Shown here one piece after another: positions 2,555 to 35,498 of a DNA stretch of 64,000 bases. Location of the stretch: the sequence record OR525698.1; one strand, given 5' to 3'. The notes beneath the pieces are model-generated. The model was not told where the DNA came from, did no database searches, and saw only the letters and a list, made by a program, of their open reading frames with translations. This stretch comes from Escherichia phage vB-Eco-KMB43. Made by a program: the position numbers and the translations under genes. Every line of letters starts with the position of its first letter. Positions within the stretch are counted from its first letter, which is position 1.

Positions 2555-4417
2555 TTACATGTGCTTAACGCGGTTTACCATCTCGGAGTGTTTCCCGTGG
2601 TTAAATGGACGCAGATCAACAGATCCAAGATATCCACTAACGCGACGGATAACATTCATCTTTTCCAGATTGTCATTGCCGCAATCAGGGCAAACAAAAC
2701 CAGACTCGGTCGCTCTCATTTCCTTATTAGATCCGCATACATGACATACATCAGAAGGAGTATTAACACCGAAGTAGTGCAATTTATCCATTGCATAGTC
2801 TACTACAGTTTCAAGACCTTTCAGGTTGTTTTTCATGTCTGGGAACTCAACATAAGAGATCATGCCACCGGACGCCAGCCAGTGATAATCTTTCTCAAAG
2901 TCGATTTTCTCAAACGGTGTGACTTTCCGGTCTACGTCAAGGTGGAATGAGTTGGTGTACCAGTCTTTATCGGTAGCACCCTTAACAATACCAAATTGCT
3001 CTCGGTCCAGTCGATTAAATCGATAGCAAAGGCTCTCGGCTGGAGTACCGTAAAGACTAAACCCAAGTCCGGTTTCGTCCTTCCATTTTTCAGTATAATG
3101 ACGCAAGATCTTAAGAATATGTTTACCGTATCGCTGCGCATCTTCCGAATCAAACGGATGAACACCAAACAGGACGCTCAATACCTCATGTAAACCAATA
3201 TATCCAAGAGAGATACTAGCGCGACCATCTTTCAACACTTCCAAAATTTCATCGTTTTGATGAATACGGAAAAACGCACCTTCGGTATACAGTACAGGAG
3301 CAACATTGGCTTTAGCACCTTTTAAAGCGTCTACGCGACTCATGAGCGCATCAAAGCAAATAGGCATACGATTAGCTAGCTCTTGTTCGAATAGCTCAAT
3401 TCTGCGCATTACAGACGCTTTACCAGCACGACGCGCGGCAATAAGGGCAATACGCGGAAGATTCAGAGTCACAACACCTAAGTTATTACGTCCGTCTAAT
3501 ACTTCCTCGCCTTTCTCATTATGCCACACACCCAGGAAGCTACGACAACCCATCGGGCTAACCGGAACACTAGATCCGGTGATACTACGGTTATTCTTCG
3601 CAGAGATATAATCAGGGTAAAGACGCTTACTAGAACATTCCAATGCAAGTTGCTTAATGTCGTAGTTCGGATCTTCCGGTTTAAGGTTTAATCCTTCTTC
3701 TAAGAACATCACCAGCTTAGGAAACACCGGAGTGATACCATCTTTACCTAAACCTTTAGTTCGAACGTTCAGGATCGCTTTCTGAATCAGTTTTTCTTCC
3801 CAGCTAGTCCCCATACCAAATGTTAAAGTCACAAAAGGTGTTTGACCGTTGGTGGAGAACAAAGTGTTGATTTCATATTCCAACGCTTGATACCCGTCTA
3901 GCGTTTCTTTTTCTGTCTTCTCTTGTGCATAGAGAGTATCCGCTTTGATTCCGTAGGTTTCGGCATCAGCAAGGTGTTTATGATATGTTTTCTCAACGTA
4001 TGGCGCTAAAACCTGATCGATGTTTGCAATTGTGGTCCCGCCATATTGATGACTTGCCACCTGTGCGATAATTTGAGCGGTTACAGCACAAGCAACGCCG
4101 ATTGATTTCGGACTTTCGATTTGTGCGCTACCCAATTTAAAACCATTCTCTAACATGTCTTTGAGGTTAACAAGACAGCAGTTAGTAAACGGCATAGCGG
4201 GTGCATAATCCATATCATGATAATGAATGTCACCGTCTACATGCGCTTTATAGATGTGCTCAGGTAACACGGTTTTAGCAATCTGTTTAGACACAGCACC
4301 AGCAATCAGATCTCGACGTGTCGGGAATGTTCGCGCGTCTTTGTTCGCGTTCTCTTTGCTTACTTCGTTTTCTTTACCCGTTGCGATCTCTGTAATGTCT
4401 TTGATTAGTTTTTCCAT
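2555..4417 (-). CDS. nrdD: anaerobic ribonucleoside-triphosphate reductase, class III
   Basis: 620 aa. C-terminal Zn-ribbon (CHVCG...CPDCG) and glycyl-radical motif RRVSGYLG. Uninterrupted, with no intron. Confidence 0.95.
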   Translation of the reverse strand: MEKLIKDITEIATGKENEVSKENANKDARTFPTRRDLIAGAVSKQIAKTVLPEHIYKAHVDGDIHYHDMDYAPAMPFTNCCLVNLKDMLENGFKLGSAQIESPKSIGVACAVTAQIIAQVASHQYGGTTIANIDQVLAPYVEKTYHKHLADAETYGIKADTLYAQEKTEKETLDGYQALEYEINTLFSTNGQTPFVTLTFGMGTSWEEKLIQKAILNVRTKGLGKDGITPVFPKLVMFLEEGLNLKPEDPNYDIKQLALECSSKRLYPDYISAKNNRSITGSSVPVSPMGCRSFLGVWHNEKGEEVLDGRNNLGVVTLNLPRIALIAARRAGKASVMRRIELFEQELANRMPICFDALMSRVDALKGAKANVAPVLYTEGAFFRIHQNDEILEVLKDGRASISLGYIGLHEVLSVLFGVHPFDSEDAQRYGKHILKILRHYTEKWKDETGLGFSLYGTPAESLCYRFNRLDREQFGIVKGATDKDWYTNSFHLDVDRKVTPFEKIDFEKDYHWLASGGMISYVEFPDMKNNLKGLETVVDYAMDKLHYFGVNTPSDVCHVCGSNKEMRATESGFVCPDCGNDNLEKMNVIRRVSGYLGSVDLRPFNHGKHSEMVNRVKHM

Positions 4418-4429
4418 TGTATCACCTAT

Positions 4430-4453
4430 GAAAAAGCGGGATTTCTCCCGCTC
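4430..4453 (-). terminator. hairpin / terminator between ORF 4462..4956 and nrdD
   Basis: AGCGGGA-GAAA-TCCCGCT followed by TTTTC. The nrdD SD (AGGTGA) starts 3 nt later and no promoter intervenes. Confidence 0.6.
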
Positions 4454-4461
4454 GTTGATAG

Positions 4462-4956
4462 TTATTTTACCAGTTCTGCTAATTCTTTTTCCGCCGCTTC
4501 CAGTTCAGCTTTCAGTTGTTTGATCTCTTGTCGCTTCTTATTAGCGGCTTCCTGCTTACTATTTCGGATAATCTGATCTAGATATGAATCCCACTCCTGA
4601 ATATTTTTGATAATGTAACCGTCAACATTAATTGGTCGGAGATTTAGTACAGCTTCCAGTTTAGTTGCAAAAACTTTAATTGCTGGTGTGAAGTATTCAT
4701 ACTCGTTATCTTCAAACCAATAGCCTAGACTTGCATTCTCAATACGAAGACGAAGTTCAAGATCAAGGTCTTTATCTTCGGTGTAAAGATCTTGCACATG
4801 CCCCATCGAACTAACAACAACTTTAAAACGAATTTTATCAACACCACCAAACACACCAGTAAGTATACCAGCAATTGAGCTATTAGCGCAAGATTGGTCG
4901 CTGAATGCGTCAAGGTTTTCTTTAGTTACAGTATACCAAACATCTTGTACCCACAT
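4462..4956 (-). CDS. hypothetical protein, member of the local FKV...NE.YF domain family with a C-terminal coiled coil
   Basis: Has its own promoter cassette. The FKVVVSSMGHV...DNEYEYF segment and the K/E-rich C-terminal helix resemble ORFs 5011..6189 and 6246..6812. Confidence 0.7.
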   Translation of the reverse strand: MWVQDVWYTVTKENLDAFSDQSCANSSIAGILTGVFGGVDKIRFKVVVSSMGHVQDLYTEDKDLDLELRLRIENASLGYWFEDNEYEYFTPAIKVFATKLEAVLNLRPINVDGYIIKNIQEWDSYLDQIIRNSKQEAANKKRQEIKQLKAELEAAEKELAELVK

Positions 4957-4986
4957 AATATAATCCTCTCGTTGTTAAGTGGGAGT

Positions 4987-5014
4987 ATTATAGCATACTC
5001 CCTTCGCATGTCAA
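4987..5014 (-). promoter_or_regulatory. sigma70-type early promoter cassette
   Basis: TTGACA-16-TATAAT. The -35 contains the TGA stop of ORF 5011..6189. Inverted repeat GGGAGTAT/ATACTCCC flanks the -10. Confidence 0.8.
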
Positions 5015-6189
5015 ACACTAACTTTTTTCTTTACTGCTTTCACCTTCTGGCGAATTGCTCGAATCTCTTCGATCTCTTTTTCAGTCTCTTTAACAATTTC
5101 TTTGCGATTCTGAATATCTGTATCTAGATTCTCATCGAGTTTAGGAAGCATGTCGATCAAGAACTTTTTAAGGTCTTTCAGGTTGCGAATAACAGTACCT
5201 TCACCCATTACCGCAACACCCACACCATCCGGCAGATCACCAAACAGCTTAACCAGTTCAGACAGATGATCATGATCTTCTAGTGCTTCTTCCGGTTCAG
5301 ATGGCAGTTCAACAAAGTTATAACGTTCATCATTGCTGATCAAGTGATACCAGCAAAGCCCGAAAGATTTCGGTGTATATTCTACACCATCAATTTCAAC
5401 CGCGTCAACACTTCCATAATCATCTACTTTAGTTACCTTAAATCCTTGTCCCAGCTTTTGAACAATTTCAACAACATGACTTGATACAGTTTCAGCGGTA
5501 AACCAATATGGCAAATTATGCTGATTTGGCTTGTAGCGTTCACCTACTTTAAATCTCTGACCATCCGCTTGCATAGCATGAAATTGTTGTTGCGTGATTT
5601 CCGCGAAGTATTCAAATTCGCTACCGTCAAACAAGCAATTCCATTGATCACAAAAACGATCTGCCTTAACAGTTTCACCTTTCGCGGTGATCATGGTAGC
5701 TGATCCGTGCAATTCTTCTTCAACTAAAAAGCCATATTCGACAAAATCAACAAGTTTCATAGCTTCTTTGTGATCTGGATCATGCTCTCCCCAGAATCGC
5801 TTAAATTCTTGCAAACCTTCTGGGGTAAACGAATAACATTTACCTTTTTCAAAGTAAGTCGGCATTGCATCCTCTTTCTTGTTCATCGCTTCGTATGCCT
5901 CTTTTGAGATACGTTTAAAGTATTTGCGCTCATTGTTCATAATCATAGTAGCCCAATAATCCACAATATCATTAGCGGAATAAACTACATCTCCAGCTTC
6001 AATAGTAATAACATGACCGTGGTCATCTTTTTCTAATACTTTAAAGCCCTTTTCTACGATTTCAGCAACCCGAATATGACCACGGCGCGAAGCATCGGTC
6101 AGAATAATTGAATAGCGAGAAAAGTCTAGAAACTCATCTTTACCGCCTTCACGGAATGCATAGTAATGACCTTCAAAGAATTTAGCCAT
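5011..6189 (-). CDS. hypothetical protein with three tandem copies of a ~90-aa domain plus a coiled-coil tail
   Basis: Internal repeats: GFKVLEKDDHGHV..NERKYFKRI, GFLVEEELHG..SEFEYFAEI, GFKVTKVDDYGSV..NDERYNFVEL. Has its own promoter cassette. Confidence 0.75.
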   Translation of the reverse strand: MAKFFEGHYYAFREGGKDEFLDFSRYSIILTDASRRGHIRVAEIVEKGFKVLEKDDHGHVITIEAGDVVYSANDIVDYWATMIMNNERKYFKRISKEAYEAMNKKEDAMPTYFEKGKCYSFTPEGLQEFKRFWGEHDPDHKEAMKLVDFVEYGFLVEEELHGSATMITAKGETVKADRFCDQWNCLFDGSEFEYFAEITQQQFHAMQADGQRFKVGERYKPNQHNLPYWFTAETVSSHVVEIVQKLGQGFKVTKVDDYGSVDAVEIDGVEYTPKSFGLCWYHLISNDERYNFVELPSEPEEALEDHDHLSELVKLFGDLPDGVGVAVMGEGTVIRNLKDLKKFLIDMLPKLDENLDTDIQNRKEIVKETEKEIEEIRAIRQKVKAVKKKVSV

Positions 6190-6220
6190 AATATAATCCT
6201 CTCGTTGTTTAGATGGGAGT

Positions 6221-6249
6221 ATCTTACTACTCCCGTTTCATCATGTCAA
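6221..6249 (-). promoter_or_regulatory. sigma70-type early promoter cassette
   Basis: TTGACA-17-TAAGAT. The -35 contains the TGA stop of ORF 6246..6812. Inverted repeat GGGAGTA/TACTCCC flanks the -10. Confidence 0.75.
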
Positions 6250-6812
6250 GCGTTAAATGACTTTTGGATCTCTTTCAGTTCAGCTACTTTATCGGCGCTA
6301 TATTTTGCTTGATGTTCCATGCGCTTAAGCTCACCTTTGATATAGGTTTCTAGCTTAGGTTTATTCTCAATCAGAAAATCTTTCAAGTCATCGGCATTTT
6401 TAAAGTATAGCTGATTGTCAAAGCTAAAATCTTCCAGCGTCAATGATACCAAAGAAGACTTCGCAAACAAGTTAATCAGACCTTCCAGAGATTCTTCTTT
6501 CTTAACTGGTTTCATTTCTTCAAACTGCTTTTTAGTGATGCGTTTAAAGTATTTGCGCTCGTTTGCAGCAATCAGAACAGATGCACCTTCATACCCATGA
6601 GTTTCTACCAGATACACACGCCCCATCGCATCAACAGTGAGAACTTTAAAGCCGTTACAAAGCACGTCATACAAGAACTTATTATGTTGCGGACATCGTT
6701 TGATAAATTCTGCGGCTGTTTCTGCACTACGGAAAGTGTAATAACGACCTCGTTCAAAAACAGCATCATTTGAAGACTTAGCCGGATACAATTTATACGT
6801 TTTCTGTACCAT
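6246..6812 (-). CDS. hypothetical protein, one copy of the same domain plus a coiled-coil tail
   Basis: GFKVLTVDAMGRV..NERKYFKRITKKQFEEM. Start moved to ATG 6812 after GAGGATTATATT. Confidence 0.7.
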   Translation of the reverse strand: MVQKTYKLYPAKSSNDAVFERGRYYTFRSAETAAEFIKRCPQHNKFLYDVLCNGFKVLTVDAMGRVYLVETHGYEGASVLIAANERKYFKRITKKQFEEMKPVKKEESLEGLINLFAKSSLVSLTLEDFSFDNQLYFKNADDLKDFLIENKPKLETYIKGELKRMEHQAKYSADKVAELKEIQKSFNA

Positions 6813-6838
6813 AATATAATCCTCTATCATTTCACTAA

Positions 6839-7099
6839 TTAAACAGCACGGAACAGAATGCGCTCACACGGAAGCAGCATAAATTCCCAACGCGGGTCAA
6901 AGTCTTTAGCGGTGTATGTTTTCCCATCAACCGCTATTTCACTTACATAACCAACAGGTGACACTTTAAGAACAGTAAACCCATTCTTGATGACTTCGTA
7001 GGTATCTTTCACCCCTTCGTATTCATCATCTAAGAAGTCTTTATGTGCTTGCTCAGATTTAAAAACATAGGCCACACCGGATTTAAACATCTTACGCAT
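6839..7099 (-). CDS. hypothetical protein, single copy of the same domain (86 aa)
   Basis: GFTVLKVSPVGYVSEIAVDG. The track ORF 6839..7159 reads through the promoter. ATG 7099 follows AAGGAGAATCAACA. Confidence 0.65.
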   Translation of the reverse strand: MRKMFKSGVAYVFKSEQAHKDFLDDEYEGVKDTYEVIKNGFTVLKVSPVGYVSEIAVDGKTYTAKDFDPRWEFMLLPCERILFRAV

Positions 7100-7130
7100 T
7101 GTTGATTCTCCTTCTTGATTAGATGGGAGT

Positions 7131-7159
7131 ATTTTACTACTCCCATTTCTTATTGTCAA
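7131..7159 (-). promoter_or_regulatory. sigma70-type early promoter cassette
   Basis: TTGACA-17-TAAAAT. Inverted repeat TGGGAGTA/TACTCCCA flanks the -10. Confidence 0.75.
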
Positions 7160-7162
7160 CTA

Positions 7163-7636
7163 CTATCTTAATCTTTGTATGAATTGTTTCTTATACTTCT
7201 TCGTGATTTCTTCTCGTGTATCAGCGTCACAGTAATCGAAACCTTCTGCGTCCATAATATCAACCATCTCCGCGCGTGTCAAGCGTGAAAATCGTTTTAC
7301 TTTATCAACGGCATATTGAGGATGTAAATGATTGTTGGTGTAGTCTCCTTTGATGTAATTAACATAGTTTGTAGCCCAAACAACGAAATCAGCACCTAAA
7401 GCACCAACACCAAACCGTTTAAAGTCTCCGGTCAACGATCCTTCTAGGCGGTTGCAACACGAATGAAGCAATCCCCTTACTCGGCCTTGCCCTTTCCCAT
7501 CTAGATCATGATCATGGTCAAGATGGTTTTTGCTCATATCCTCAAAAAGTGGCAATTGACAAAGGGGGCAAATGCCCCCCTGTTTTTCGAATAGTTCTTG
7601 TTTGTACTCTTTAGCACTCTTAGCAGTCAGTAACAT
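7163..7636 (-). CDS. 49: recombination endonuclease VII (Holliday junction resolvase)
   Basis: MLLT.K...C.LC...HLDHDH...G..RGLL...CN..EG matches recalled T4 gp49 in sequence and length (157 aa). Confidence 0.9.
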   Translation of the reverse strand: MLLTAKSAKEYKQELFEKQGGICPLCQLPLFEDMSKNHLDHDHDLDGKGQGRVRGLLHSCCNRLEGSLTGDFKRFGVGALGADFVVWATNYVNYIKGDYTNNHLHPQYAVDKVKRFSRLTRAEMVDIMDAEGFDYCDADTREEITKKYKKQFIQRLR

Positions 7637-7660
7637 AAATTCACCCTCCAAAGAAGGTAT

Positions 7661-7942
7661 TTAACCATTAATCTTGTTTTTGACTACAAAGGATCGGAAC
7701 TCATCAAAACCACCGATATAATCACCGTCATAGAAAATCTGCGGCATGGTGGCAATAACTTCTACCCCTGCGCGATCCTGAATGTCGGCAATGATAGAAT
7801 CAATCTTTACCGGACGACCGTTTTCGTCTACACCATCATTAACCGGAATGTAGATGTAAGGGATCTTACGCGATTCACAAAGGCGCTTTGCATTCTGGCA
7901 ATACTTACAGTTGTAACCTTCAAAACCAAAAATTTCTACCAT
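7661..7942 (-). CDS. nrdC: glutaredoxin/thioredoxin (NrdC-like)
   Basis: CKYCQNAKRL redox motif. The MPQIF..G..IGGFD.. tail is as in T4 NrdC. ATG 7942 follows GAGGTATAAC. Confidence 0.85.
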   Translation of the reverse strand: MVEIFGFEGYNCKYCQNAKRLCESRKIPYIYIPVNDGVDENGRPVKIDSIIADIQDRAGVEVIATMPQIFYDGDYIGGFDEFRSFVVKNKING

Positions 7943-7943
7943 G

Positions 7944-8699
7944 TTATACCTCATTCAGTTCTATATCAAGTTCATTTTCAATAATATAGGCATTAACTGC
8001 CCGTGCCGCATCATCTTCTGTGTCAAATCTTCCTATATACACACCGCGAACTTTAGCACCGTAATTACCTTGTTTTGGTACTTTGTAAACGTATCTATGA
8101 CGGGAACTTGCTGCTTTTTGGAGCTTCTTGCCATATTCAGACTTTGCATATTCTATATCATCAATCTCGTTTATACAAGACCTATCACCAAAATGTTTCA
8201 ACGCGGCAAGATTATATGCATACGCCGCGCCGATCTCGGAGGGAAAATATCCTAAATGTATCGACTTCCCATCCAACATTATTGCACCAGTCCAATAACC
8301 TTTATTCTTATTAAACGACACACCTTTATACTTCGAATATGTTTTGCATTTGGTCTTGCTCATATTCATATTATTTTGTTTGCGTGTCGTCTCTCTAAGG
8401 TTTTCAATGCGGCTATTATAACGATCTCGGTCTTTATGATCTATATACTTAGGACAATGACCATGAAACATATGATAGATAACACGGTGCATACGTTCGT
8501 ATCGCTCGCCAGTCCATACAATACGATACCCATCGGGGGTATCACTTCCAGCTAATCCGTTTATAACACCTTTTCGGTGCGGGTGAATCTTCCACCTAAG
8601 AAAACCATCATCATAATAAAACCGTGAATGATATAAATCATATAAACGTTTATCTTCTGGAGTCTTGTGTATAACCTCATATTTTAACATTGGTGACAT
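7944..8699 (-). CDS. free-standing HNH homing endonuclease with a C-terminal AP2 DNA-binding domain
   Basis: HRVIYHMFHG..IDHKDRDRYNSRIENLRETTRKQN (HNH) followed by YKGVS...W.A.I...GK..HLGYF.....AA.AYN.AA (AP2). The 5' end overlaps the dam 3' end by 23 nt. Confidence 0.85.
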   Translation of the reverse strand: MSPMLKYEVIHKTPEDKRLYDLYHSRFYYDDGFLRWKIHPHRKGVINGLAGSDTPDGYRIVWTGERYERMHRVIYHMFHGHCPKYIDHKDRDRYNSRIENLRETTRKQNNMNMSKTKCKTYSKYKGVSFNKNKGYWTGAIMLDGKSIHLGYFPSEIGAAYAYNLAALKHFGDRSCINEIDDIEYAKSEYGKKLQKAASSRHRYVYKVPKQGNYGAKVRGVYIGRFDTEDDAARAVNAYIIENELDIELNEV

Positions 8700-9492
8700 A
8701 AACTTCCTTAGTATCGGATTTTTTACCCCCGCTACGATCTAAACAATATGTTTTATCCAGTTCAACAACAGAAACATCATTACGTTCGATAAAATCGAGC
8801 AAATGGTTGTTAACTTTCCCTTTGTGGTGAGTAACATTGCTTAATCCAAACTTAGCACCGCTAGACATTAATGATTCTATCCACATGTAGAATTTAATCT
8901 CTTCTTCTTCACTCCAGAACTTATTATATTCTGCCGACGTGATCCAATATGGCGGATCAAGGAAAACGAAATCACCTGGCAAGATCTCGATCTCGTCATA
9001 GCGACCAGACGTAAAACTGATTCGACCGTCTTTGTTTTCTTCCTTAAAATTCAGGACACGCTCTACCGCGTTTTCGTTAAAAGTCCGGCGACCAAAATTA
9101 GCATTAAATTCGCCCTTCCGGTTATGGCGGTTAATGTTGCTAAAACTATGCTGAATCAACACAAACAGCGATAGCGGATCTGGATTCTCATTATACTTCT
9201 TACGGAATGCCATGTAAGCGTCTTTATCTTCGCGAGACAAACCATTTTCGGCAATAATCCGCTTGATCGTAGAAACCGGATCAGGACACTCGTCAATGGC
9301 CTTGTAAGCGTCAATTAAGCGGTGATCATAGTCATTAGCCAGCACATCCCCTTCGACGTACAGAGACACGCTCAAGCCGCCACAAAAGGCATCAACAAAG
9401 CGGTTATAGTGCTTAGGGAAATACTTACTAACACCGGGCAATAACTTTTCCTTATTGCCAGTATAGGGAATTAAACCTAATGCTTTCTTCAT
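8677..9492 (-). CDS. dam: DNA adenine methyltransferase (Dam, GATC type)
   Basis: YTGNK..LLP....FP.....FVD.FCGGLSV N-terminus and a DPPY motif, as in recalled T4 Dam. Confidence 0.9.
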   Translation of the reverse strand: MKKALGLIPYTGNKEKLLPGVSKYFPKHYNRFVDAFCGGLSVSLYVEGDVLANDYDHRLIDAYKAIDECPDPVSTIKRIIAENGLSREDKDAYMAFRKKYNENPDPLSLFVLIQHSFSNINRHNRKGEFNANFGRRTFNENAVERVLNFKEENKDGRISFTSGRYDEIEILPGDFVFLDPPYWITSAEYNKFWSEEEEIKFYMWIESLMSSGAKFGLSNVTHHKGKVNNHLLDFIERNDVSVVELDKTYCLDRSGGKKSDTKEVYVTNVKI

Positions 9493-9923
9493 TATCCCTT
9501 CCTCAAATAAGTTCGCTCAATCTCTACCAGTTCGAAAAATTCATTCCAATCACACGGAAAATTGCAGTTTCCAAAATGGTCTTCGTTATAGAGTTCTTTA
9601 CCGGATGGCAGCTTAATATCTGTTACAGTATACCAACCGCAACAATCGCAATCACCCTCAGCAACAGAAACCTTCGTAGGAATTTGCATCATTGCTAGAT
9701 AGGTCGGTACGTCAGACTGTTCAAAGATCATGTAACCTTCATGGTCAAACGAGACAAAATTGTCATCACCCAAAAAAGGAATGTAATGGTCATAATCGGT
9801 TACAGGTTGACCGTGCAATTCCCATTCTACAATTTTAACATTACCACTAAACTTTATACCCATAATTTCAACAAGAAAATGAGTATCGTCAATGTAAATC
9901 TTACTAGGAGTTGGATAAACCAT
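9492..9923 (-). CDS. hypothetical protein (143 aa)
   Basis: Long ORF. Its stop overlaps the dam start (TAATG). SD variant GAGGATTATATA. Confidence 0.65.
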   Translation of the reverse strand: MVYPTPSKIYIDDTHFLVEIMGIKFSGNVKIVEWELHGQPVTDYDHYIPFLGDDNFVSFDHEGYMIFEQSDVPTYLAMMQIPTKVSVAEGDCDCCGWYTVTDIKLPSGKELYNEDHFGNCNFPCDWNEFFELVEIERTYLRKG

Positions 9924-12632: not shown

Positions 12633-12845
12633 TCAATTAGTTATAGCGCGTGCTTCGTTGCCAGTAAAGCACCATTCATACTTACGATTATGAATACCTG
12701 AAACAGATACACCAGCTTTGATCAATTCTCCAGTTGCCACAAGAAACGATCCGCCAAACTTCTTACCTTCTACAACAATTGGTAATTCAACACCTTTCAT
12801 AAAGCTAAATGCAATATCTTCTAAAGTAAAAATTTCAATTTTCAT
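12633..12845 (-). CDS. hypothetical protein, small paralog family (70 aa)
   Basis: MKIEIF...FMKGVELPIVVEG...TGELIKAGV...YEWCFTG. Confidence 0.65.
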   Translation of the reverse strand: MKIEIFTLEDIAFSFMKGVELPIVVEGKKFGGSFLVATGELIKAGVSVSGIHNRKYEWCFTGNEARAITN

Positions 12846-13089
12846 TTACATTATCTCCATAGATCTTTCCAGCAATATCAATTTCACCAGCGCGAACATC
12901 TAGGATAAGATGCGGTAGGTGAATGCAGTTTTCCCACCCTACGCGCTTCATTTCTGAAACAGTGACGTAAGCCCATCCGTTCGCTGTAATAAAGTCTACT
13001 TCAACCTTGAGAGGAAAGCAAGACTTTTCTATGTTTTCAAATCCGATAATGTGTTTTGTCGTTGAATATGGAATATATCCGGTGATCAT
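12835..13089 (-). CDS. hypothetical protein, distant member of the same family (84 aa)
   Basis: FPLKVEVDF...YVTVSEMKRVG pattern. Overlaps its neighbours by 4 to 11 nt. Confidence 0.55.
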   Translation of the reverse strand: MITGYIPYSTTKHIIGFENIEKSCFPLKVEVDFITANGWAYVTVSEMKRVGWENCIHLPHLILDVRAGEIDIAGKIYGDNVNEN

Positions 13090-13520
13090 TTTGTGATCTC
13101 CTTATACTCAACACACCATAAGCGGGTAGCCCATGATAAACGCTCATAACGCTGGCAGAAATCGGACCATAGATATTGTGTACCGTCTTGCATGGTTGAA
13201 ATATGCGTTTTCTCACCTACTTTCACGAAAGAAGTATTCGATTTTGTGATCTCGACCGGAGTATATCCGAAAGCTGGTTCCAAGTCAACATCTGAACTAA
13301 ATGCTAATTTAACAGAATTTGTTTTTCTGACCGCTGTCCGGTTTCCTTCTGGGTATAGCACAGCAGGTTTAGCGCCTAAGCGGATAAACTCAGTGTTTTT
13401 AATAAACAGAATATCATGATAACCGTCATATTCCGACACTTCCATAGTAACAGGAAAATCGACAGGTTCTAAACCTGGTAGATCTCGCATATCATGAAAG
13501 GTCGCCATCAACTTTTTCAT
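13086..13520 (-). CDS. hypothetical protein (144 aa)
   Basis: Start moved to ATG 13520 after GAGGAATATAGA. The FPVTMEV...IKNTEFIRLG segment resembles the family motif. Confidence 0.6.
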   Translation of the reverse strand: MKKLMATFHDMRDLPGLEPVDFPVTMEVSEYDGYHDILFIKNTEFIRLGAKPAVLYPEGNRTAVRKTNSVKLAFSSDVDLEPAFGYTPVEITKSNTSFVKVGEKTHISTMQDGTQYLWSDFCQRYERLSWATRLWCVEYKEITK

Positions 13521-31480: not shown

Positions 31481-31735
31481 ATGACAGAAGACATTTTGTT
31501 AAAACTCTATGATCGTTTGGATAACGAATTAGCAACATTGCGGGGTGAAGTTCTCTATTTGTCTAAATGCAATACAGATCTGCTTAAGCAGATTGCAGAA
31601 AGGGATGATCAAATAAAATCCCTTTCAGGTGCATTACGTGATCGCGACAAGGCATTAGAGATTTTACAGCGTGTTACCAATAAGGAAGAATTAAAAGACT
31701 TCTTACATGGTTATGCTCATGCTATCGATCTATAA
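31481..31735 (+). CDS. hypothetical coiled-coil protein (84 aa) on the opposite strand between genes 3 and 2
   Basis: ORF with SD AGGA 6 nt upstream. Heptad-rich. Followed by hairpin 31736..31762. Confidence 0.5.
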   Translation: MTEDILLKLYDRLDNELATLRGEVLYLSKCNTDLLKQIAERDDQIKSLSGALRDRDKALEILQRVTNKEELKDFLHGYAHAIDL

Positions 31736-31762
31736 TAAAAAAAAGCCCGTCAATGACGGGCT
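31736..31762. terminator. hairpin shared by convergent gene 2 (-) and ORF 31481..31735 (+)
   Basis: GCCCGTC-AAT-GACGGGC. There are eight T on the minus-strand side (strong) and only TT on the plus-strand side. Confidence 0.7.
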
Positions 31763-31767
31763 TAATG

Positions 31768-32589
31768 TTATGCATCCTTCCAAACTTTCCTTGCGTCGTA
31801 TTTCTTGCCTTTTGACATAAACTGATATGTCGGCATATAGATAATATTGCTCCAGTCTTTCGGGCTAATCTCAACAAGTTTTGTTTTAATGTGTCCCGGT
31901 AGATATGCTTTGATCATGTGGTCACTACCACGCATACCTTTTACATCGCTCCATTTGATTTTTAAGCGTGTTTTATTGCTCAAGGTAGGAGTAGATGCAT
32001 ATTGCTTTAAAAGTGCTTCCAGAAACTGCTGACGGGCTTTAGGCGTTACATAGTGTAAGTTAAGACCCAGCATTACAGTATTACCCGCCTTTGTCTTAGA
32101 ATCACCCAGACAAATGATCAGCGGGAAAACATCCCAATATGGCAAAGTGTCTTTATACTTCGCATCATACATAAAGGTATAGATTCGCCCTACTTGCGGT
32201 TTTACAATCTGGTGTCCCTTTATTCCCGCTTTTATTGTTTTAGTAAACCACTCCTGTGATTTTTCTTTAGGACGACTCTTTGATACAGCACGCATAGACG
32301 CACGAAAATCATTAATCATCATCATTGCGCGTTGCTGCTTATTGAGACCCTTTGCGCCTTTCCCTTTTAGTTTTTCAACTTCTATTGCTGTTTTAATTTC
32401 GCTTGCATAACGAGACATACTTTTAGTGAAAGTCGCATAGGCTATTCCCTTAGAATCTGCAAATGCTTTAGCTGTCATGCCTTTGGCTTTTGCTTTCGCA
32501 AATTCTACACCCAATTCGACCCACTGTTTAGACTTTCTTTTTTGGGGAGACGGCTTTTCGTCTTCTGTGATTATTTCAAATACGCTCAT
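31768..32589 (-). CDS. 2: DNA end protector protein gp2
   Basis: 273 aa, basic, positioned between genes 4 and 3 as in T4 (gp2 is 274 aa). Confidence 0.8.
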   Translation of the reverse strand: MSVFEIITEDEKPSPQKRKSKQWVELGVEFAKAKAKGMTAKAFADSKGIAYATFTKSMSRYASEIKTAIEVEKLKGKGAKGLNKQQRAMMMINDFRASMRAVSKSRPKEKSQEWFTKTIKAGIKGHQIVKPQVGRIYTFMYDAKYKDTLPYWDVFPLIICLGDSKTKAGNTVMLGLNLHYVTPKARQQFLEALLKQYASTPTLSNKTRLKIKWSDVKGMRGSDHMIKAYLPGHIKTKLVEISPKDWSNIIYMPTYQFMSKGKKYDARKVWKDA

Positions 32590-32600
32590 AATATTATCCT

Positions 32601-33077
32601 CTATTTGTTAAGCCCTTTAAAGCCAAACACTTTCTTTAATGCATGTTCGGTGATGATCTTAAACTCCATGTTATGCTTTTGGCACAAATCAACCGCAGCT
32701 TTCCACTTTTCCGTGTTTACAGTATATGTGTAACACTCTTGCATGTATCTTTGCTTAGTCTTAGTGGTTATTCTTTTTGGCCTTTCCGGTGGCCGTGTCT
32801 CTTTTGCCGGTTTAACTTCCCATAAGAACTCTTTACCATCTACAAATTTCACCCAAAAATCCATATGATACTTTCTGGATCGTTTATCTGCGCTAGACCA
32901 GTAAGGTATAATCACACACTCAGAGTTCCATTTAGACACGCTAGGACTACGGTCCAAAAATTTCATTATGTGCAATTCCCAGCTTGATCTATAAGTGATT
33001 TTATGCAAGTTGTTTCCTTTGTACTTCTCAGGATTTTCTGGCTTGAACTTGCCCTTATAAGTGTTAGATCCTCCCAT
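32601..33077 (-). CDS. 4: head completion protein gp4
   Basis: 158 aa. Divergent from gene 53 as in T4. Contains the motif SSWE......D....V..W..E...IPY. Confidence 0.85.
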   Translation of the reverse strand: MGGSNTYKGKFKPENPEKYKGNNLHKITYRSSWELHIMKFLDRSPSVSKWNSECVIIPYWSSADKRSRKYHMDFWVKFVDGKEFLWEVKPAKETRPPERPKRITTKTKQRYMQECYTYTVNTEKWKAAVDLCQKHNMEFKIITEHALKKVFGFKGLNK

Positions 33078-33135
33078 TTTAGCACCCTTTATTATAAATA
33101 CATAATACTATTTATCAATTGAGGGTGCTAAAATG
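33075..33135. repeat. 14-bp perfect inverted repeat containing the SD and ATG of divergent genes 4 and 53
   Basis: cattttagcaccct (33075..33088) is the reverse complement of agggtgctaaaatg (33122..33135). Confidence 0.9.
33093..33100 (+). promoter_or_regulatory. late promoter TATAAATA for gene 53
   Basis: Exact motif 33 nt upstream of ATG 33133, in the divergent 4/53 gap. Confidence 0.75.
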
Positions 33136-33687
33136 CTCTTTTCTTTCTTCCCTGCCATTGAATACAACGGCAAGATGATTACTGACATTGTGCGCAATTA
33201 CCGCGCCTATTTCAACGCAATAATTTCTGATTATAACATACAAACATATTACATTCAAGGTAGTCCACGACCGGAACAAGTTGCATATGAAGTATACGGA
33301 AACCAACAACTTTATTGGATCTTGCTGATGCTTAATGACGTATACGATCCGTTCCATGACTGGATCACCGATCAAGAGACAGCATATGAATCAGCCGAAC
33401 AGCGATATGCAAATGTAGGAGGAAATCAAGTATTATACCACGTTGATATTGACGGAAACAAGTATTGGAATCTTACCGAATATCCGAAAGGATCAAGCAA
33501 TTGGTATGATAAAGGGGATATTCATCATCGTCATTTGCAGTTTCAAGGTGCACTATCGGCAGTAGACACACTGGAAGATGCGATCCTCCGTAATGAGGAA
33601 CGACGCAAGATCAAGATCATAGATCCTACACAAATTAAACAATTTATTAACGCATTCATTCGAGAAATGGAAAAGGCTGATGTGTAA
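33133..33687 (+). CDS. 53: baseplate wedge protein gp53
   Basis: MLF.FF..IEY...YYI.GSPRPE......YGN.QLYW.LLM.ND.YDP matches recalled T4 gp53. Confidence 0.9.
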   Translation: MLFSFFPAIEYNGKMITDIVRNYRAYFNAIISDYNIQTYYIQGSPRPEQVAYEVYGNQQLYWILLMLNDVYDPFHDWITDQETAYESAEQRYANVGGNQVLYHVDIDGNKYWNLTEYPKGSSNWYDKGDIHHRHLQFQGALSAVDTLEDAILRNEERRKIKIIDPTQIKQFINAFIREMEKADV

Positions 33688-33698
33688 GGTGATTAATT

Positions 33699-35498
33699 AT
33701 GCTAATGTTTAATAACTCCGTTAAATGGTTTACCGGAATTGTAGAAAACAGGGAAGACCCATTAATGCTGGGGCGTGTTCAGGTTAGGATTCATGGTATA
33801 CATCCCTCGCTATCCGCACACGGTGACATTCAAGGTCTCCCAACCGAAGATCTATTATGGATTACGCCAGTACAAGATATTACAAGCGCGGCGATCTCCG
33901 GTATAGGTCAAAGCCCTACTGGTATTGTTGAAGGTTCAATGGTATTTGGTTTGGCTTTAGATGAACGTTATTTAAACTGCGTTATTCTGGGTACTATTGC
34001 CGGACAATATACAGAGAAACCACTCACTACAGAAGGTTTTTGCGACCCTTCTGGTGCATATCCTCGTTATATTGGTAATGATGTTAATATTCTTGCTCGT
34101 GGCGGTATTAACCCAGAAACCGGACAAACAACAAAACCTGATAGTGTCTATATTCGAGATGAAAACACTGGAGTTGCAGTAAATCCAGACGACGAGCCAT
34201 TAGACCAAATTCCGGTTGATGATAATCCTGATTTTACAATAGAAAAAATGCTGCGGGGCGATGAGGGATATCGCGAGAAATGGTATCTTGATTCAGAAGG
34301 ATATCCGACAATAGGCATCGGGCATTTGATCATTTATAAGAAAACCAGTGATCTGGGTATTATCAATAATGAACTTTCTAAGCTGGTAGGGCGTGAAGTT
34401 ACAAACGGAAGACTTACCGCCGAAGAAGTTAGTAAAGTATTTGCCGACGATATAGAAAAGACTCGTCGTGATATGCGCAAACATCCACGAATTGCACCTG
34501 TCTATAATAAATGTAATGCTTCTCGTCGTATGGCATTAGAAAATATGGCGTTTCAAATGGGTGTTGGTGGATTGGGTAAATTTAAGAATAGTCTTGCTGC
34601 GATGTTAGCGGAAGAATGGAAACAAGCCTATGATGGATTACGTCAATCTGTATGGGCTAACCAAACTCCAGGACGATCCAGCCGTGTTTCTAAAATTATT
34701 TTAACTGGTAACTTAGAATCATATGGCGTAATTGCTCCAAAGAAAGATGAATCTGTTTCTGATGATCCGCGAGCACGTTTGAGAAATGCCCGTATTGCTG
34801 CCTATAAGACGCAGAGAGCAGAAGAAGACCCAGAAGCACCGTTTACCCCACAAGACACACGAATCATGTTTAAAGAGCCTAAGAGTTCGTATTCTGCGAG
34901 GTATCCTTATAACCATGTGTACGAGTCAGAGAGCGGTCATATTATCGAGATTGATGATACTCCTTCTCACGAACGTTATCACCGCAAACATCCTTCTGGT
35001 ACATTTGAAGAAACCAGACCGGACGGAACGAGGGTAGAAAAGATTGAGGGTGATGATTATCTGATCGTTAAGCAAGGCCGGAAAGTCAACGTTAAGGGTA
35101 ATTTGCAAGTTGTTGTTGAAGGTGACGCGCAAGTTTATTATATGGGTAATGTAATGCAAACCGTTGATGGTAACGTCACTGAATTTATTCGTGGCAATGT
35201 TAATCAGACCGTTGAAGGTACTGCTAACATGCATGTTGTAGGTGATGTTACCGCTCAGCTTGACGCTAATTTAACGGCTAATGTCAAGGGTAATGCTGAA
35301 TTAATGATCGAGGGTAACACTACCGAAACAATTAAAGGTAACTATGATTTAACCGTTGAGGGTAATTTTAATATGACCGTCAATGGCACTAAATCAGATC
35401 AGGTTAATGGTGACTGGTCCCGTAATTGTGGTGCAAGCGTTAAAGATATTGCATCTGGTACAGTTAAAATTGATGGTAGCCGTATTGATCTTGGGTGA
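33699..35498 (+). CDS. 5: baseplate hub / tail lysozyme / cell-puncturing device gp5
   Basis: OB-fold N-terminus, T4-lysozyme-like core (YLDSEGYPTIGIGHLI) and C-terminal V.G octapeptide beta-helix repeats. Confidence 0.95.
   Translation: MLMFNNSVKWFTGIVENREDPLMLGRVQVRIHGIHPSLSAHGDIQGLPTEDLLWITPVQDITSAAISGIGQSPTGIVEGSMVFGLALDERYLNCVILGTIAGQYTEKPLTTEGFCDPSGAYPRYIGNDVNILARGGINPETGQTTKPDSVYIRDENTGVAVNPDDEPLDQIPVDDNPDFTIEKMLRGDEGYREKWYLDSEGYPTIGIGHLIIYKKTSDLGIINNELSKLVGREVTNGRLTAEEVSKVFADDIEKTRRDMRKHPRIAPVYNKCNASRRMALENMAFQMGVGGLGKFKNSLAAMLAEEWKQAYDGLRQSVWANQTPGRSSRVSKIILTGNLESYGVIAPKKDESVSDDPRARLRNARIAAYKTQRAEEDPEAPFTPQDTRIMFKEPKSSYSARYPYNHVYESESGHIIEIDDTPSHERYHRKHPSGTFEETRPDGTRVEKIEGDDYLIVKQGRKVNVKGNLQVVVEGDAQVYYMGNVMQTVDGNVTEFIRGNVNQTVEGTANMHVVGDVTAQLDANLTANVKGNAELMIEGNTTETIKGNYDLTVEGNFNMTVNGTKSDQVNGDWSRNCGASVKDIASGTVKIDGSRIDLG
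35097..35495 (+). repeat. gp5 triple-stranded beta-helix octapeptide repeats (coding repeat)
   Basis: Recurrent V.G.....(V/I).G units: VVEGDAQV, VDGNVTEF, VEGTANMH, VKGNAELM, IKGNYDLT, VEGNFNMT. Confidence 0.85.

Follow-up and report, generated by a model that had tools for sequence, protein, structure and literature searches.

An array of GoF/Frd.2-type barrel modules around nrdD in Escherichia phage vB-Eco-KMB43

The locus and its genes

Escherichia phage vB-Eco-KMB43 (sequence record OR525698.1) was analysed over a stretch of 64,000 nucleotides, hereafter the window. Towards its left end five small genes, here called A to E, encode proteins with one to three copies of a module of about 90 residues (Table 1). 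Transcription, all from the minus strand, follows the order glutaredoxin-like gene, gene 49, D, C, B, A, nrdD, two unrelated open reading frames (ORFs), nrdG and E. A, C and D contain a single module each and B contains three. An initial annotation, made from the sequence alone, had reported four ORFs, A to D, and all were found on the minus strand; the array is larger than it described, since E adds a seventh module and an eighth gene is cut by the left edge of the window. The module is very probably a known one, the N-terminal barrel domain of the phage T4 proteins GoF and Frd.2, in the array architecture described here.

The 3-kb stretch is 96% identical to Krischvirus genomes, that is to RB49-like T4-type coliphages, and the 58 phage records it matches all belong to Escherichia, Shigella or Krischvirus phages. 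Genes A to D occupy the gap between gene 49 and nrdD, as first noted; gene 49 abuts nrdD in T4 and they are therefore an insertion relative to that phage. Their start codons are backed by Shine-Dalgarno sequences and by the gene models of relatives. The fragment of the cut gene is too short to be significant alone against the external profile described below (E = 1.4). For comparison with a complete genome we used ECD7 (NC_041936), a relative 95.5% identical at the locus.

Table 1. Genes, modules and regulatory elements of the locus, in the direction of transcription
Feature	Position (nt)	Strand	Description
Glutaredoxin-like gene	7661-7942	minus	
Gene 49	7163-7636	minus	endonuclease VII (Pfam)
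PeSL promoter, D (and C)	7131-7159	minus	-35 TTGACA 7159-7154; -10 TAAAAT 7136-7131; 11/12 consensus
Hairpin at D promoter	7125-7144	minus	GGGAGTA/TACTCCC across the -10; -13.8 kcal/mol
Gene D	6839-7099	minus	86 aa; single bare GoF/Frd.2-type module; phrog_16115; AAGGAG 8 nt before ATG at 7099
Gene C	6246-6812	minus	188 aa; isoelectric point (pI) 9.0; one module
Gene C, module	6504-6764	minus	residues about 17-103
Gene C, rest	3' of module	minus	C-terminal helix-hairpin-helix with DLKxFLI motif; coiled-coil tail
PeSL promoter, B	6221-6249	minus	-35 TTGACA 6249-6244; -10 TAAGAT 6226-6221
Hairpin at B promoter	6215-6234	minus	
Gene B	5011-6189	minus	392 aa; acidic, net charge -21; three tandem modules
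Gene B, module B1	5875-6189	minus	
Gene B, module B2	5563-5868	minus	
Gene B, module B3	5281-5562	minus	
Gene B, C-terminal part	5014-5280	minus	disordered linker; helix-hairpin C-terminal domain; helix of about 55 residues
PeSL promoter, A	4987-5014	minus	TTGACA; spacer 16 nt; TG before -10 TATAAT; 12/12
Hairpin at A promoter	4981-5002	minus	-13.3 kcal/mol
Gene A	4462-4956	minus	164 aa; acidic; one strongly diverged module, about nt 4687-4953; helical coiled-coil-like tail
Hairpin between A and nrdD	4431-4451	minus	GCGGGA-GAAA-TCCCGC then T5; between A stop and nrdD start (4417), 14 nt before nrdD start codon
nrdD	2555-4417	minus	
nrdG	623-1132	minus	
Gene E	124-612	minus	162 aa; one module, about nt 349-606, and helical tail; downstream of nrdG
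Cut family gene	1-119	minus	N-terminal 39 residues, starting MKWEEGKTYALVGEYEK; start 5 nt past E stop; position of ECD7 gp051

A module repeated within and between genes

Smith-Waterman alignments scored against 300 shuffles give z values of 16.6 (B1-B2), 17.2 (B1-B3) and 15.7 (B1-C), and of 11.0 (B1-D), 11.3 (B3-D) and 10.6 (C-D). By these scores the modules of B, C and D are related far above chance. The module of gene A is not significant in pairwise alignment with the others (z of 3.6 or less).

An external profile was built from 40 module segments of other phages only, excluding the window sequences, their orthologues and the T4 proteins, and run against a database of 2,536 sequences in which the top shuffled decoy scored 0.02-0.07. 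The E-values are 5.6e-11 for B1, 7.2e-9 for B2, 8.1e-12 for B3, 2.4e-11 for C, 7.7e-18 for D and 3.4e-19 for E, an independent match of E having scored 0.005. The module of A reaches 4.7e-7 with this profile and had reached 8.9e-8 with the family profile before its own inclusion. As B1, B2 and B3 each score, B holds three tandem copies, and phrog_622 likewise matches gene B in three stretches. The arrangement first proposed, with a shared module in consecutive genes, three tandem copies in B, one each in C and D and a diverged copy in A, thus holds throughout, the copy in A by profile though not pairwise.

A tail with a DLKxFLI motif and coiled coil had also been assigned to three of the genes. 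For B and C this stands: BLAST aligns residues 246-385 of B with 51-188 of C, and a tail profile (B, C and P0037) agrees. In A the tail is suggestive only (E = 0.21), and the profile gives no significant match to E, GoF or Frd.2, so a C-terminal domain common to the whole family is not established.

Relationship to T4 GoF and Frd.2

The module had been taken for a novel domain family. Databases of phage proteins point elsewhere. The PHROGs entry phrog_8944, 'goF mRNA metabolism modulator', matches B (1e-211) and C (7e-97), both of which RefSeq labels goF, while the original RB49, Phi1 and JSE records label B frd.2. Gene A matches phrog_15067 and, more weakly, phrog_3710, which is also matched by B and E; E matches phrog_5347, and weaker matches to phrog_622, 5347, 3710 and 5804 are found in all of A to E.

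Profile searches lead to the same T4 proteins. With a profile of six window modules alone T4 GoF is matched end to end at 1.1e-7 and Frd.2 at 2.5e-4 (top decoy 0.12); the external profile gives 8.4e-13 and 1.5e-7, respectively, and, when run against every T4 ORF, 4e-13 and 1e-7. Third in the T4 scan is MotB.1, at an E-value of about 0.02 (0.016-0.047) that is borderline or not significant. Shuffle z values are 10.4 for B3 with Frd.2 and 9.1 for C with GoF. Kim et al. 2025 described GoF (ComC-alpha), Frd.2 and MotB.1 as an 'LSm-like fold' family of Tevenvirinae early proteins (PMC12152347), and hence the three top T4 proteins of the scan, the non-significant MotB.1 among them, are members of that family. 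Its N-terminal barrel has five strands, the nearest solved relatives are FeoA-type SH3 domains and Hfq, and the T4 homologues are non-essential (PMC12152347). The claim of novelty is therefore given up: on the evidence of the profiles, the PHROGs, RefSeq and RB49 labels and the published family (PMC12152347), the module corresponds to the domain at the N-terminus of GoF and Frd.2 in T4.

General domain collections are of less help. A Pfam scan of A to E at E <= 1 gave no LSM, Hfq or SH3-type family above threshold, and NCBIfam holds no family model, T4 GoF included. Pfam hits to RecT in B (19.4 bits against a cut-off of 24) and to Complex1_LYR in C (19.6 bits against 24.8) are below threshold and off the domain boundaries, and we attribute both to chance.

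A word-indexed homologue search gave close orthologues only, even with a 49-sequence profile, and it was an exhaustive profile search of 1.84 billion representative proteins (E <= 1e-3) that supplied the family. This yielded 50 clusters, about 37 of small phage-type proteins and 13 of long VCBS-like repeat proteins. The latter (P0035, P0038, P0040, P0042, P0049, P0079 and others) were rejected as false positives, partial matches to a strand pattern. Could the module itself be a chance resemblance of low-complexity beta-strand patterns, without true homology? That the profile also catches the 13 VCBS-like proteins through an FTV..VDG..V..I.G pattern speaks for this, but those matches cover no more than profile positions 15-60 or so and need many repeats, whereas the module and GoF matches run end to end over 80-95 residues, with z to 17 and E to 1e-19 against decoys of at least 0.02. 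The profile and shuffle scores refute the idea and we give it practically no weight. Bacterial VCBS-like proteins, we note, score to 3.5e-20 against the module profile by way of many partial matches of this kind and are a trap for family models.

Predicted structure

An AlphaFold2 model of the third module of B with the tail was obtained from a 53-row alignment, with a mean predicted local distance difference test score (pLDDT) of 83. Strands are modelled at residues 11-14, 43-48, 54-59, 62-64 and 85-88; strands 1 and 2 are separated by a helix (30-40). The linker, residues 89-98, has pLDDT below 50 and appears disordered; after it the chain forms a helix, a hairpin and a second helix, about 55 residues long. 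Full-length B, modelled without an alignment, has a pLDDT of 45.7. The predicted fold of the module is the SH3/LSm-like five-stranded barrel described for the family in 2025.

Comparison of the model with Foldseek, also recommended at the outset, gives 35 matches at E <= 1e-3 among viral models. These include proteins of Krischvirus, Aeromonas, Proteus, Klebsiella, Citrobacter and Acinetobacter phages, and every named one is uncharacterised. Against the PDB the list is headed by FeoA proteins and ScaR, weak neighbours of which none is significant (E >= 0.56); their place at the top agrees with the neighbours published for the GoF domain.

Promoter cassettes and a natural deletion

Promoters of their own had been proposed for three of the genes, each with a GGGAGTA/TACTCCC element, and near-consensus sigma-70 sites do precede D, B and A. 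They match 10-12 of 12 consensus positions (TTGACA-N16/17-TATAAT-like) and carry hairpins of 7-9 bp with energies of -11.9 to -13.8 kcal/mol. Across the 64 kb there are exactly three copies of the GGGAGTA...TACTCCC hairpin, one at each of these promoters, where none would be expected by chance; other parts of the window have related subtypes, such as GGGGGTA/TACCCCC (20269 and 28776). On reading the sequence no T-run is present 3' of the three hairpins. Gene C has no promoter of its own and begins 26 nt after D, with which it is predicted to be co-transcribed. In this Krischvirus, with consensus sigma-70 promoters directly upstream, the genes are assigned to the T4-type early class as predicted early genes.

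In RB49 and phi1 the PeSL cassettes combine TTGACA-N17-TATAAT with a stem-loop of a G-run and a C-run and are concentrated in hyperplastic regions (PMC2839356, PMC4122927). Judged by their sequence, the three promoter/hairpin elements are cassettes of this known kind, and the placing of the locus in a plastic, accessory region of the genome is supported. PeSL-flanked ORFans are able to excise as mini-circles (PMC2839356).

Escherichia virus KFS-EC (NC_055757) offers a view of such a cassette at work. There gene 49 is followed directly by B, and C and D are absent. The gene 49-B junction (5889-5967) is a single chimeric cassette, its upstream flank and the end of its spacer matching the D cassette and its loop, downstream flank and ribosome-binding site matching that of B, which indicates that C and D were lost by recombination between two GGGAGTA cassettes. 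Read from the junction in this way, the deletion is the mechanism proposed for PeSLs in PMC2839356 and provides direct comparative evidence for it, making the locus a clean example of PeSL-mediated gene loss.

Two further elements deserve comment. A, B and C share the ribosome-binding segment AGAGGATTATATTATG, a motif general to early genes, of which the window has 12 near-copies. The hairpin between A and nrdD looks like a terminator or attenuator, going by its sequence, placed directly before a gene of an essential pathway; relatives have terminators annotated between A and nrdD, and an automatic scan did not list this one. Rfam has no RNA family matching 4000-7700.

Age, conservation and selection

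The modules are 23-36% identical to B1, and the DNA-level repeats within 4400-7200 consist of the promoter and ribosome-binding cassettes and one 53-nt patch only, with no long repeats found that link the modules. The patch (5882-5934 in B1, 6511-6563 in C) is 77% identical with a core of 26/29 nt, encodes NERKYFKRI with identical synonymous positions, and could reflect gene conversion or codon constraint.

All four genes A to D are present in 56 of the 58 Krischvirus records, both exceptions being the same phage, KFS-EC, and B is found in every one (58/58) at 90-98% identity. Ratios of non-synonymous to synonymous substitution (dN/dS), calculated gene-wide by the Nei-Gojobori method against five relatives, are 0.16-0.41 for A, 0.14-0.26 for B, 0.19-0.26 for C, 0.18-0.39 for D and 0.28-0.36 for E, compared with 0-0.1 for nrdD, nrdG and gene 49. 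Values well below 1 indicate purifying selection on A to E, more relaxed than on the core genes, and the five frames are intact in all relatives examined. Genes A, C and E have sharply divergent alleles among Krischviruses, with 61-74% amino-acid identity and dS of 0.6-0.9, while nrdD, nrdG and gene 49 alongside them are 98-100% identical with dS of about 0.05-0.12 (nrdD about 0.09). Such alleles beside an nrdD of low dS point to recombinational replacement and not to fast change in place.

The initial annotation combined a pattern of intragenic triplication and gene duplication with a history of recent expansion under selection. The pattern is supported. The history is contradicted by the low identity of the modules, the near absence of DNA similarity, the presence in 56/58 records and dN/dS values of 0.14-0.41; as far as the sequences tell, the expansion is old, stable and lineage-specific in Krischvirus.

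These data also bear on the purpose of the array. One might see a fast-evolving host-interaction or anti-defence locus, its copies multiplied and made diverse in an arms race against host immunity. The early sigma-70 promoters predicted here, a hyperplastic region rich in accessory genes (PMC2839356), the natural dispensability of C and D in KFS-EC, dN/dS values above those of the neighbouring core genes and the divergent alleles of A, C and E are all in keeping with such a locus. However, those alleles resemble the outcome of replacement by recombination, not of fast in-place change, the duplications are old, copy number is fixed in all records other than those of KFS-EC, B is highly conserved and gene-wide positive selection was not found; nor did the literature searched yield an experimental or database link of GoF-family proteins to defence systems. 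We regard an arms race as unlikely.

At the other extreme, the ORFs might be functionless cargo that persists only through the recombinational mobility of the surrounding PeSL cassettes. Excision of PeSL-flanked ORFans as mini-circles (PMC2839356), the loss of C and D in KFS-EC and the non-essentiality of the T4 homologues (PMC12152347) would suit this idea, but dN/dS is well below 1 in all five genes, frames are intact in the relatives examined, the genes are present in 56/58 records and the family is conserved across distant T4-like phages. The chance that they are cargo of this kind is very slim.

Family size and recurrence in T4-like phages

When the same profiles are applied to the complete genome of ECD7 they pick out 10 genes, nine of them on the flanks of nrdD-nrdG, with 12 modules in total, against three in T4. 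Between gene 49 and nrdD the modules number one in A, three in B, one in C and one in D; downstream of nrdG (31611-33948) there is one in gp049, two in gp050, one in gp051 and one in gp052, the counterpart of E. A weaker member is Dc2 (gp022, 12749-13384), which adjoins the gene 41 helicase on its upstream side. The position of Dc2 near gene 41, the gene whose mRNA is affected by GoF(D25Y) (see below), may be coincidence. The positions of T4 goF and frd.2 are empty (goF) or differently filled in ECD7. Krischviruses thus carry roughly 3-4 times the T4 module count, almost all around the anaerobic reductase genes.

On the distribution of the family, a further point the initial annotation had raised, the exhaustive protein search and the Foldseek matches place it across distant T4-like phages, with two- and three-module proteins recurrent. 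Among the approximately 37 small phage-type clusters five have two modules and two have three, the cluster of B itself and P0046. The P0046 metagenome contig, SRR14300940_297 (3887-9566, T4-like), has five consecutive multi-module genes of 259, 250, 354, 354 and 269 aa, immediately upstream of NrdD and of a gene with SegE_GIY-YIG and EndoVII-dimerisation domains. A tblastn search of GenBank phages with P0046 gave no match. P0057, a two-module protein, occupies the position of ECD7 gp050. P0070, a two-module protein of 250 aa (contig SRR7532938_219428, 1483-2235), lies at the exact T4 goF position between cef and 39.2, in the order motB.2 - motB - cef - P0070 - ... - 39.2, which means that the domain has been duplicated in the goF orthologue itself as well. 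Multi-module proteins and arrays in several T4-like phages make domain multiplication and arraying a recurrent feature of the family, one not mentioned in PMC12152347.

Proposed function

What might the array proteins do? Very probably each comprises one to three SH3/LSm-like five-stranded barrels of about 85-95 residues, of the T4 GoF/Frd.2 N-terminal type, to which A, B, C and E add a flexible linker and then a helical, probably dimerising, tail. Transcription by host sigma-70 RNA polymerase would start at the PeSL cassettes immediately upon infection, and these cassettes would double as recombination sites at which gene modules are added, deleted or swapped. Several barrels per chain together with a coiled coil could provide multivalent binding and avidity, the targets being RNA or, perhaps more likely, host proteins, and mRNA fate might be acted on directly or through host RNA-handling proteins by analogy with GoF(D25Y). 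The invariant positions of the module are core aromatic, glycine and glutamate residues, structural core positions only, and from this we infer non-enzymatic binding modules; these probably serve in early host takeover or RNA fate.

Several considerations weigh against this proposal. The pI values of A, B, GoF and Frd.2 are 4.4-5.1, and such acidity does not favour direct binding to RNA. An effect on mRNA stability is known for the GoF(D25Y) mutant only, which acts post-transcriptionally to stabilise the mRNA of gene 41; in that assay the wild-type forms of GoF and MotB.1 have little effect (PMC12152347). The early expression and the oligomeric state of the array proteins are predictions. Finally, the profile behind the gene and module counts of ECD7 and T4 was assembled from matches to the window's own modules, so that it is fair between genomes and not fully independent. 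An RNA-directed mechanism is in our view doubtful, though not far-fetched. Acidity and a FeoA-like fold perhaps favour host-protein targets over RNA; with its basic pI, C is the best candidate for nucleic-acid binding.

A stronger form of the RNA hypothesis would make these proteins true Hfq/LSm-type RNA chaperones, whose barrels would bind directly to RNA as rings. The model does predict a bent sheet of five strands, GoF(D25Y) stabilises gene 41 mRNA and the structural neighbours given for the GoF domain include Hfq (PMC12152347); the three barrels of B multiplied by a coiled-coil dimer make six, the Hfq ring number, although this is arithmetic only. Yet neither Pfam LSM nor Hfq nor any other model matches at E <= 1, the modelled helix lies between strands 1 and 2 and is not N-terminal, and most members are acidic. 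Moreover AlphaFold3 homo-oligomers of GoF and MotB.1 are not confident and wild-type GoF is inactive in the reporter (PMC12152347), and the top, though weakly matched, solved folds, FeoA-type SH3 domains, are typically protein-binding. True RNA chaperones of this type are improbable. More improbable still is the combination in which B, doubled by its coiled coil, forms a six-barrel Hfq-like assembly and the ten paralogues constitute a toolkit of multivalent LSm-like adaptors. Were it true, the paralogues would each capture, in the first minutes after infection, an RNA or host RNA-handling protein of their own, and the repeated arrays beside nrdD in distant T4-like phages would signify a functional link beyond a shared plastic spot.

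In T4, goF has stayed an unsolved gene from the rho/nusD suppressor work onwards. The family was recognised only in 2025, from three single-domain T4 proteins without a wild-type phenotype (PMC12152347). In RB49-like phages the paralogues number about ten, some of them fusions of two or three barrels with coiled-coil tails, an architecture repeated in other T4-like phages. They supply natural variants for study: multivalent forms that are possibly tighter binders, the basic C beside acidic members, A, C and E in divergent allelic forms, and KFS-EC with its natural deletion of C and D. The locus reveals no new kind of system. The domain and the promoter cassettes are of kinds already known, while the scale and architecture appear undescribed: in the literature searched we found no description of the ten-gene expansion, the multi-barrel fusions with a shared coiled-coil tail, the recurrent nrdD neighbourhood or the KFS-EC deletion.

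Neighbouring genes

The ORFs between nrdD and nrdG (1358-1903 and 1915-2454) do not belong to the family. The first (minus strand, phrog_8242) occurs in two allelic forms, with 58% identity to ECD7, RB49, Brandy and JK32 as against 76% to KFS-EC, and includes a Cys-rich stretch, CSCGHAGCAGYW. On the other side of the array, a 251-aa ORF at 7944-8699 (minus strand) with HNH_3 and AP2 domains, homing-endonuclease-like, lies between the glutaredoxin-like gene and dam. In ECD7, RB49, KFS-EC, Brandy and JK32 dam comes directly after the glutaredoxin-like gene, and this ORF is accordingly an insertion specific to the phage or its close kin.

Comparison with known systems

Among solved structures, FeoA-type SH3-like domains (for example PDB 6e55) and the SH3-like domain found in the SloR/ScaR/IdeR regulators come out on top, though weakly. 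There is no sequence or Pfam match to FeoA-type domains, Foldseek gives E >= 0.56 and the module has no metal-binding histidine pattern; the likeness is one of fold only. With Hfq and the Sm/LSm proteins the module shares a small bent five-stranded antiparallel sheet and, via GoF(D25Y), a possible link to mRNA stability. It differs in having neither Sm1/Sm2 motifs nor a Pfam match, in the position of the helix, in the acidity of the proteins and in showing no evidence of ring assembly.

The promoter cassettes resemble the PeSLs of RB49 and phi1 in their near-perfect promoter and G/C-run hairpin, their intergenic position before accessory ORFs in a hyperplastic region and the indel that recombination between two cassettes produces, seen here in KFS-EC. 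What differs is the GGGAGTA/TACTCCC subtype with a hairpin spanning the -10, private to three GoF-family genes within the 64-kb window. In contig SRR14300940_297, from a distant T4-like phage, the array has the same neighbourhood as in the window, NrdD and an EndoVII-type gene.

The closest relatives are T4 GoF and Frd.2, together with MotB.1. They have in common with the array proteins a homologous N-terminal barrel, judged by profile E-values and end-to-end alignment, a predicted five-stranded fold (FeoA-type domains heading, for the module, a list of weak and non-significant structural neighbours), a layout of domain, linker and C-terminal domain, and the character of small, mostly acidic early proteins without an enzymatic motif. 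The helix-hairpin and long coiled coil of B and C are undetectable in GoF and Frd.2 with the tail profile. Each T4 member has one barrel, compared with three in B and two in ECD7 gp050, a difference of architecture that does not put the array proteins outside the family, and where T4 has three dispersed single-domain genes Krischvirus has about ten, nine of them in two blocks that flank nrdD-nrdG.

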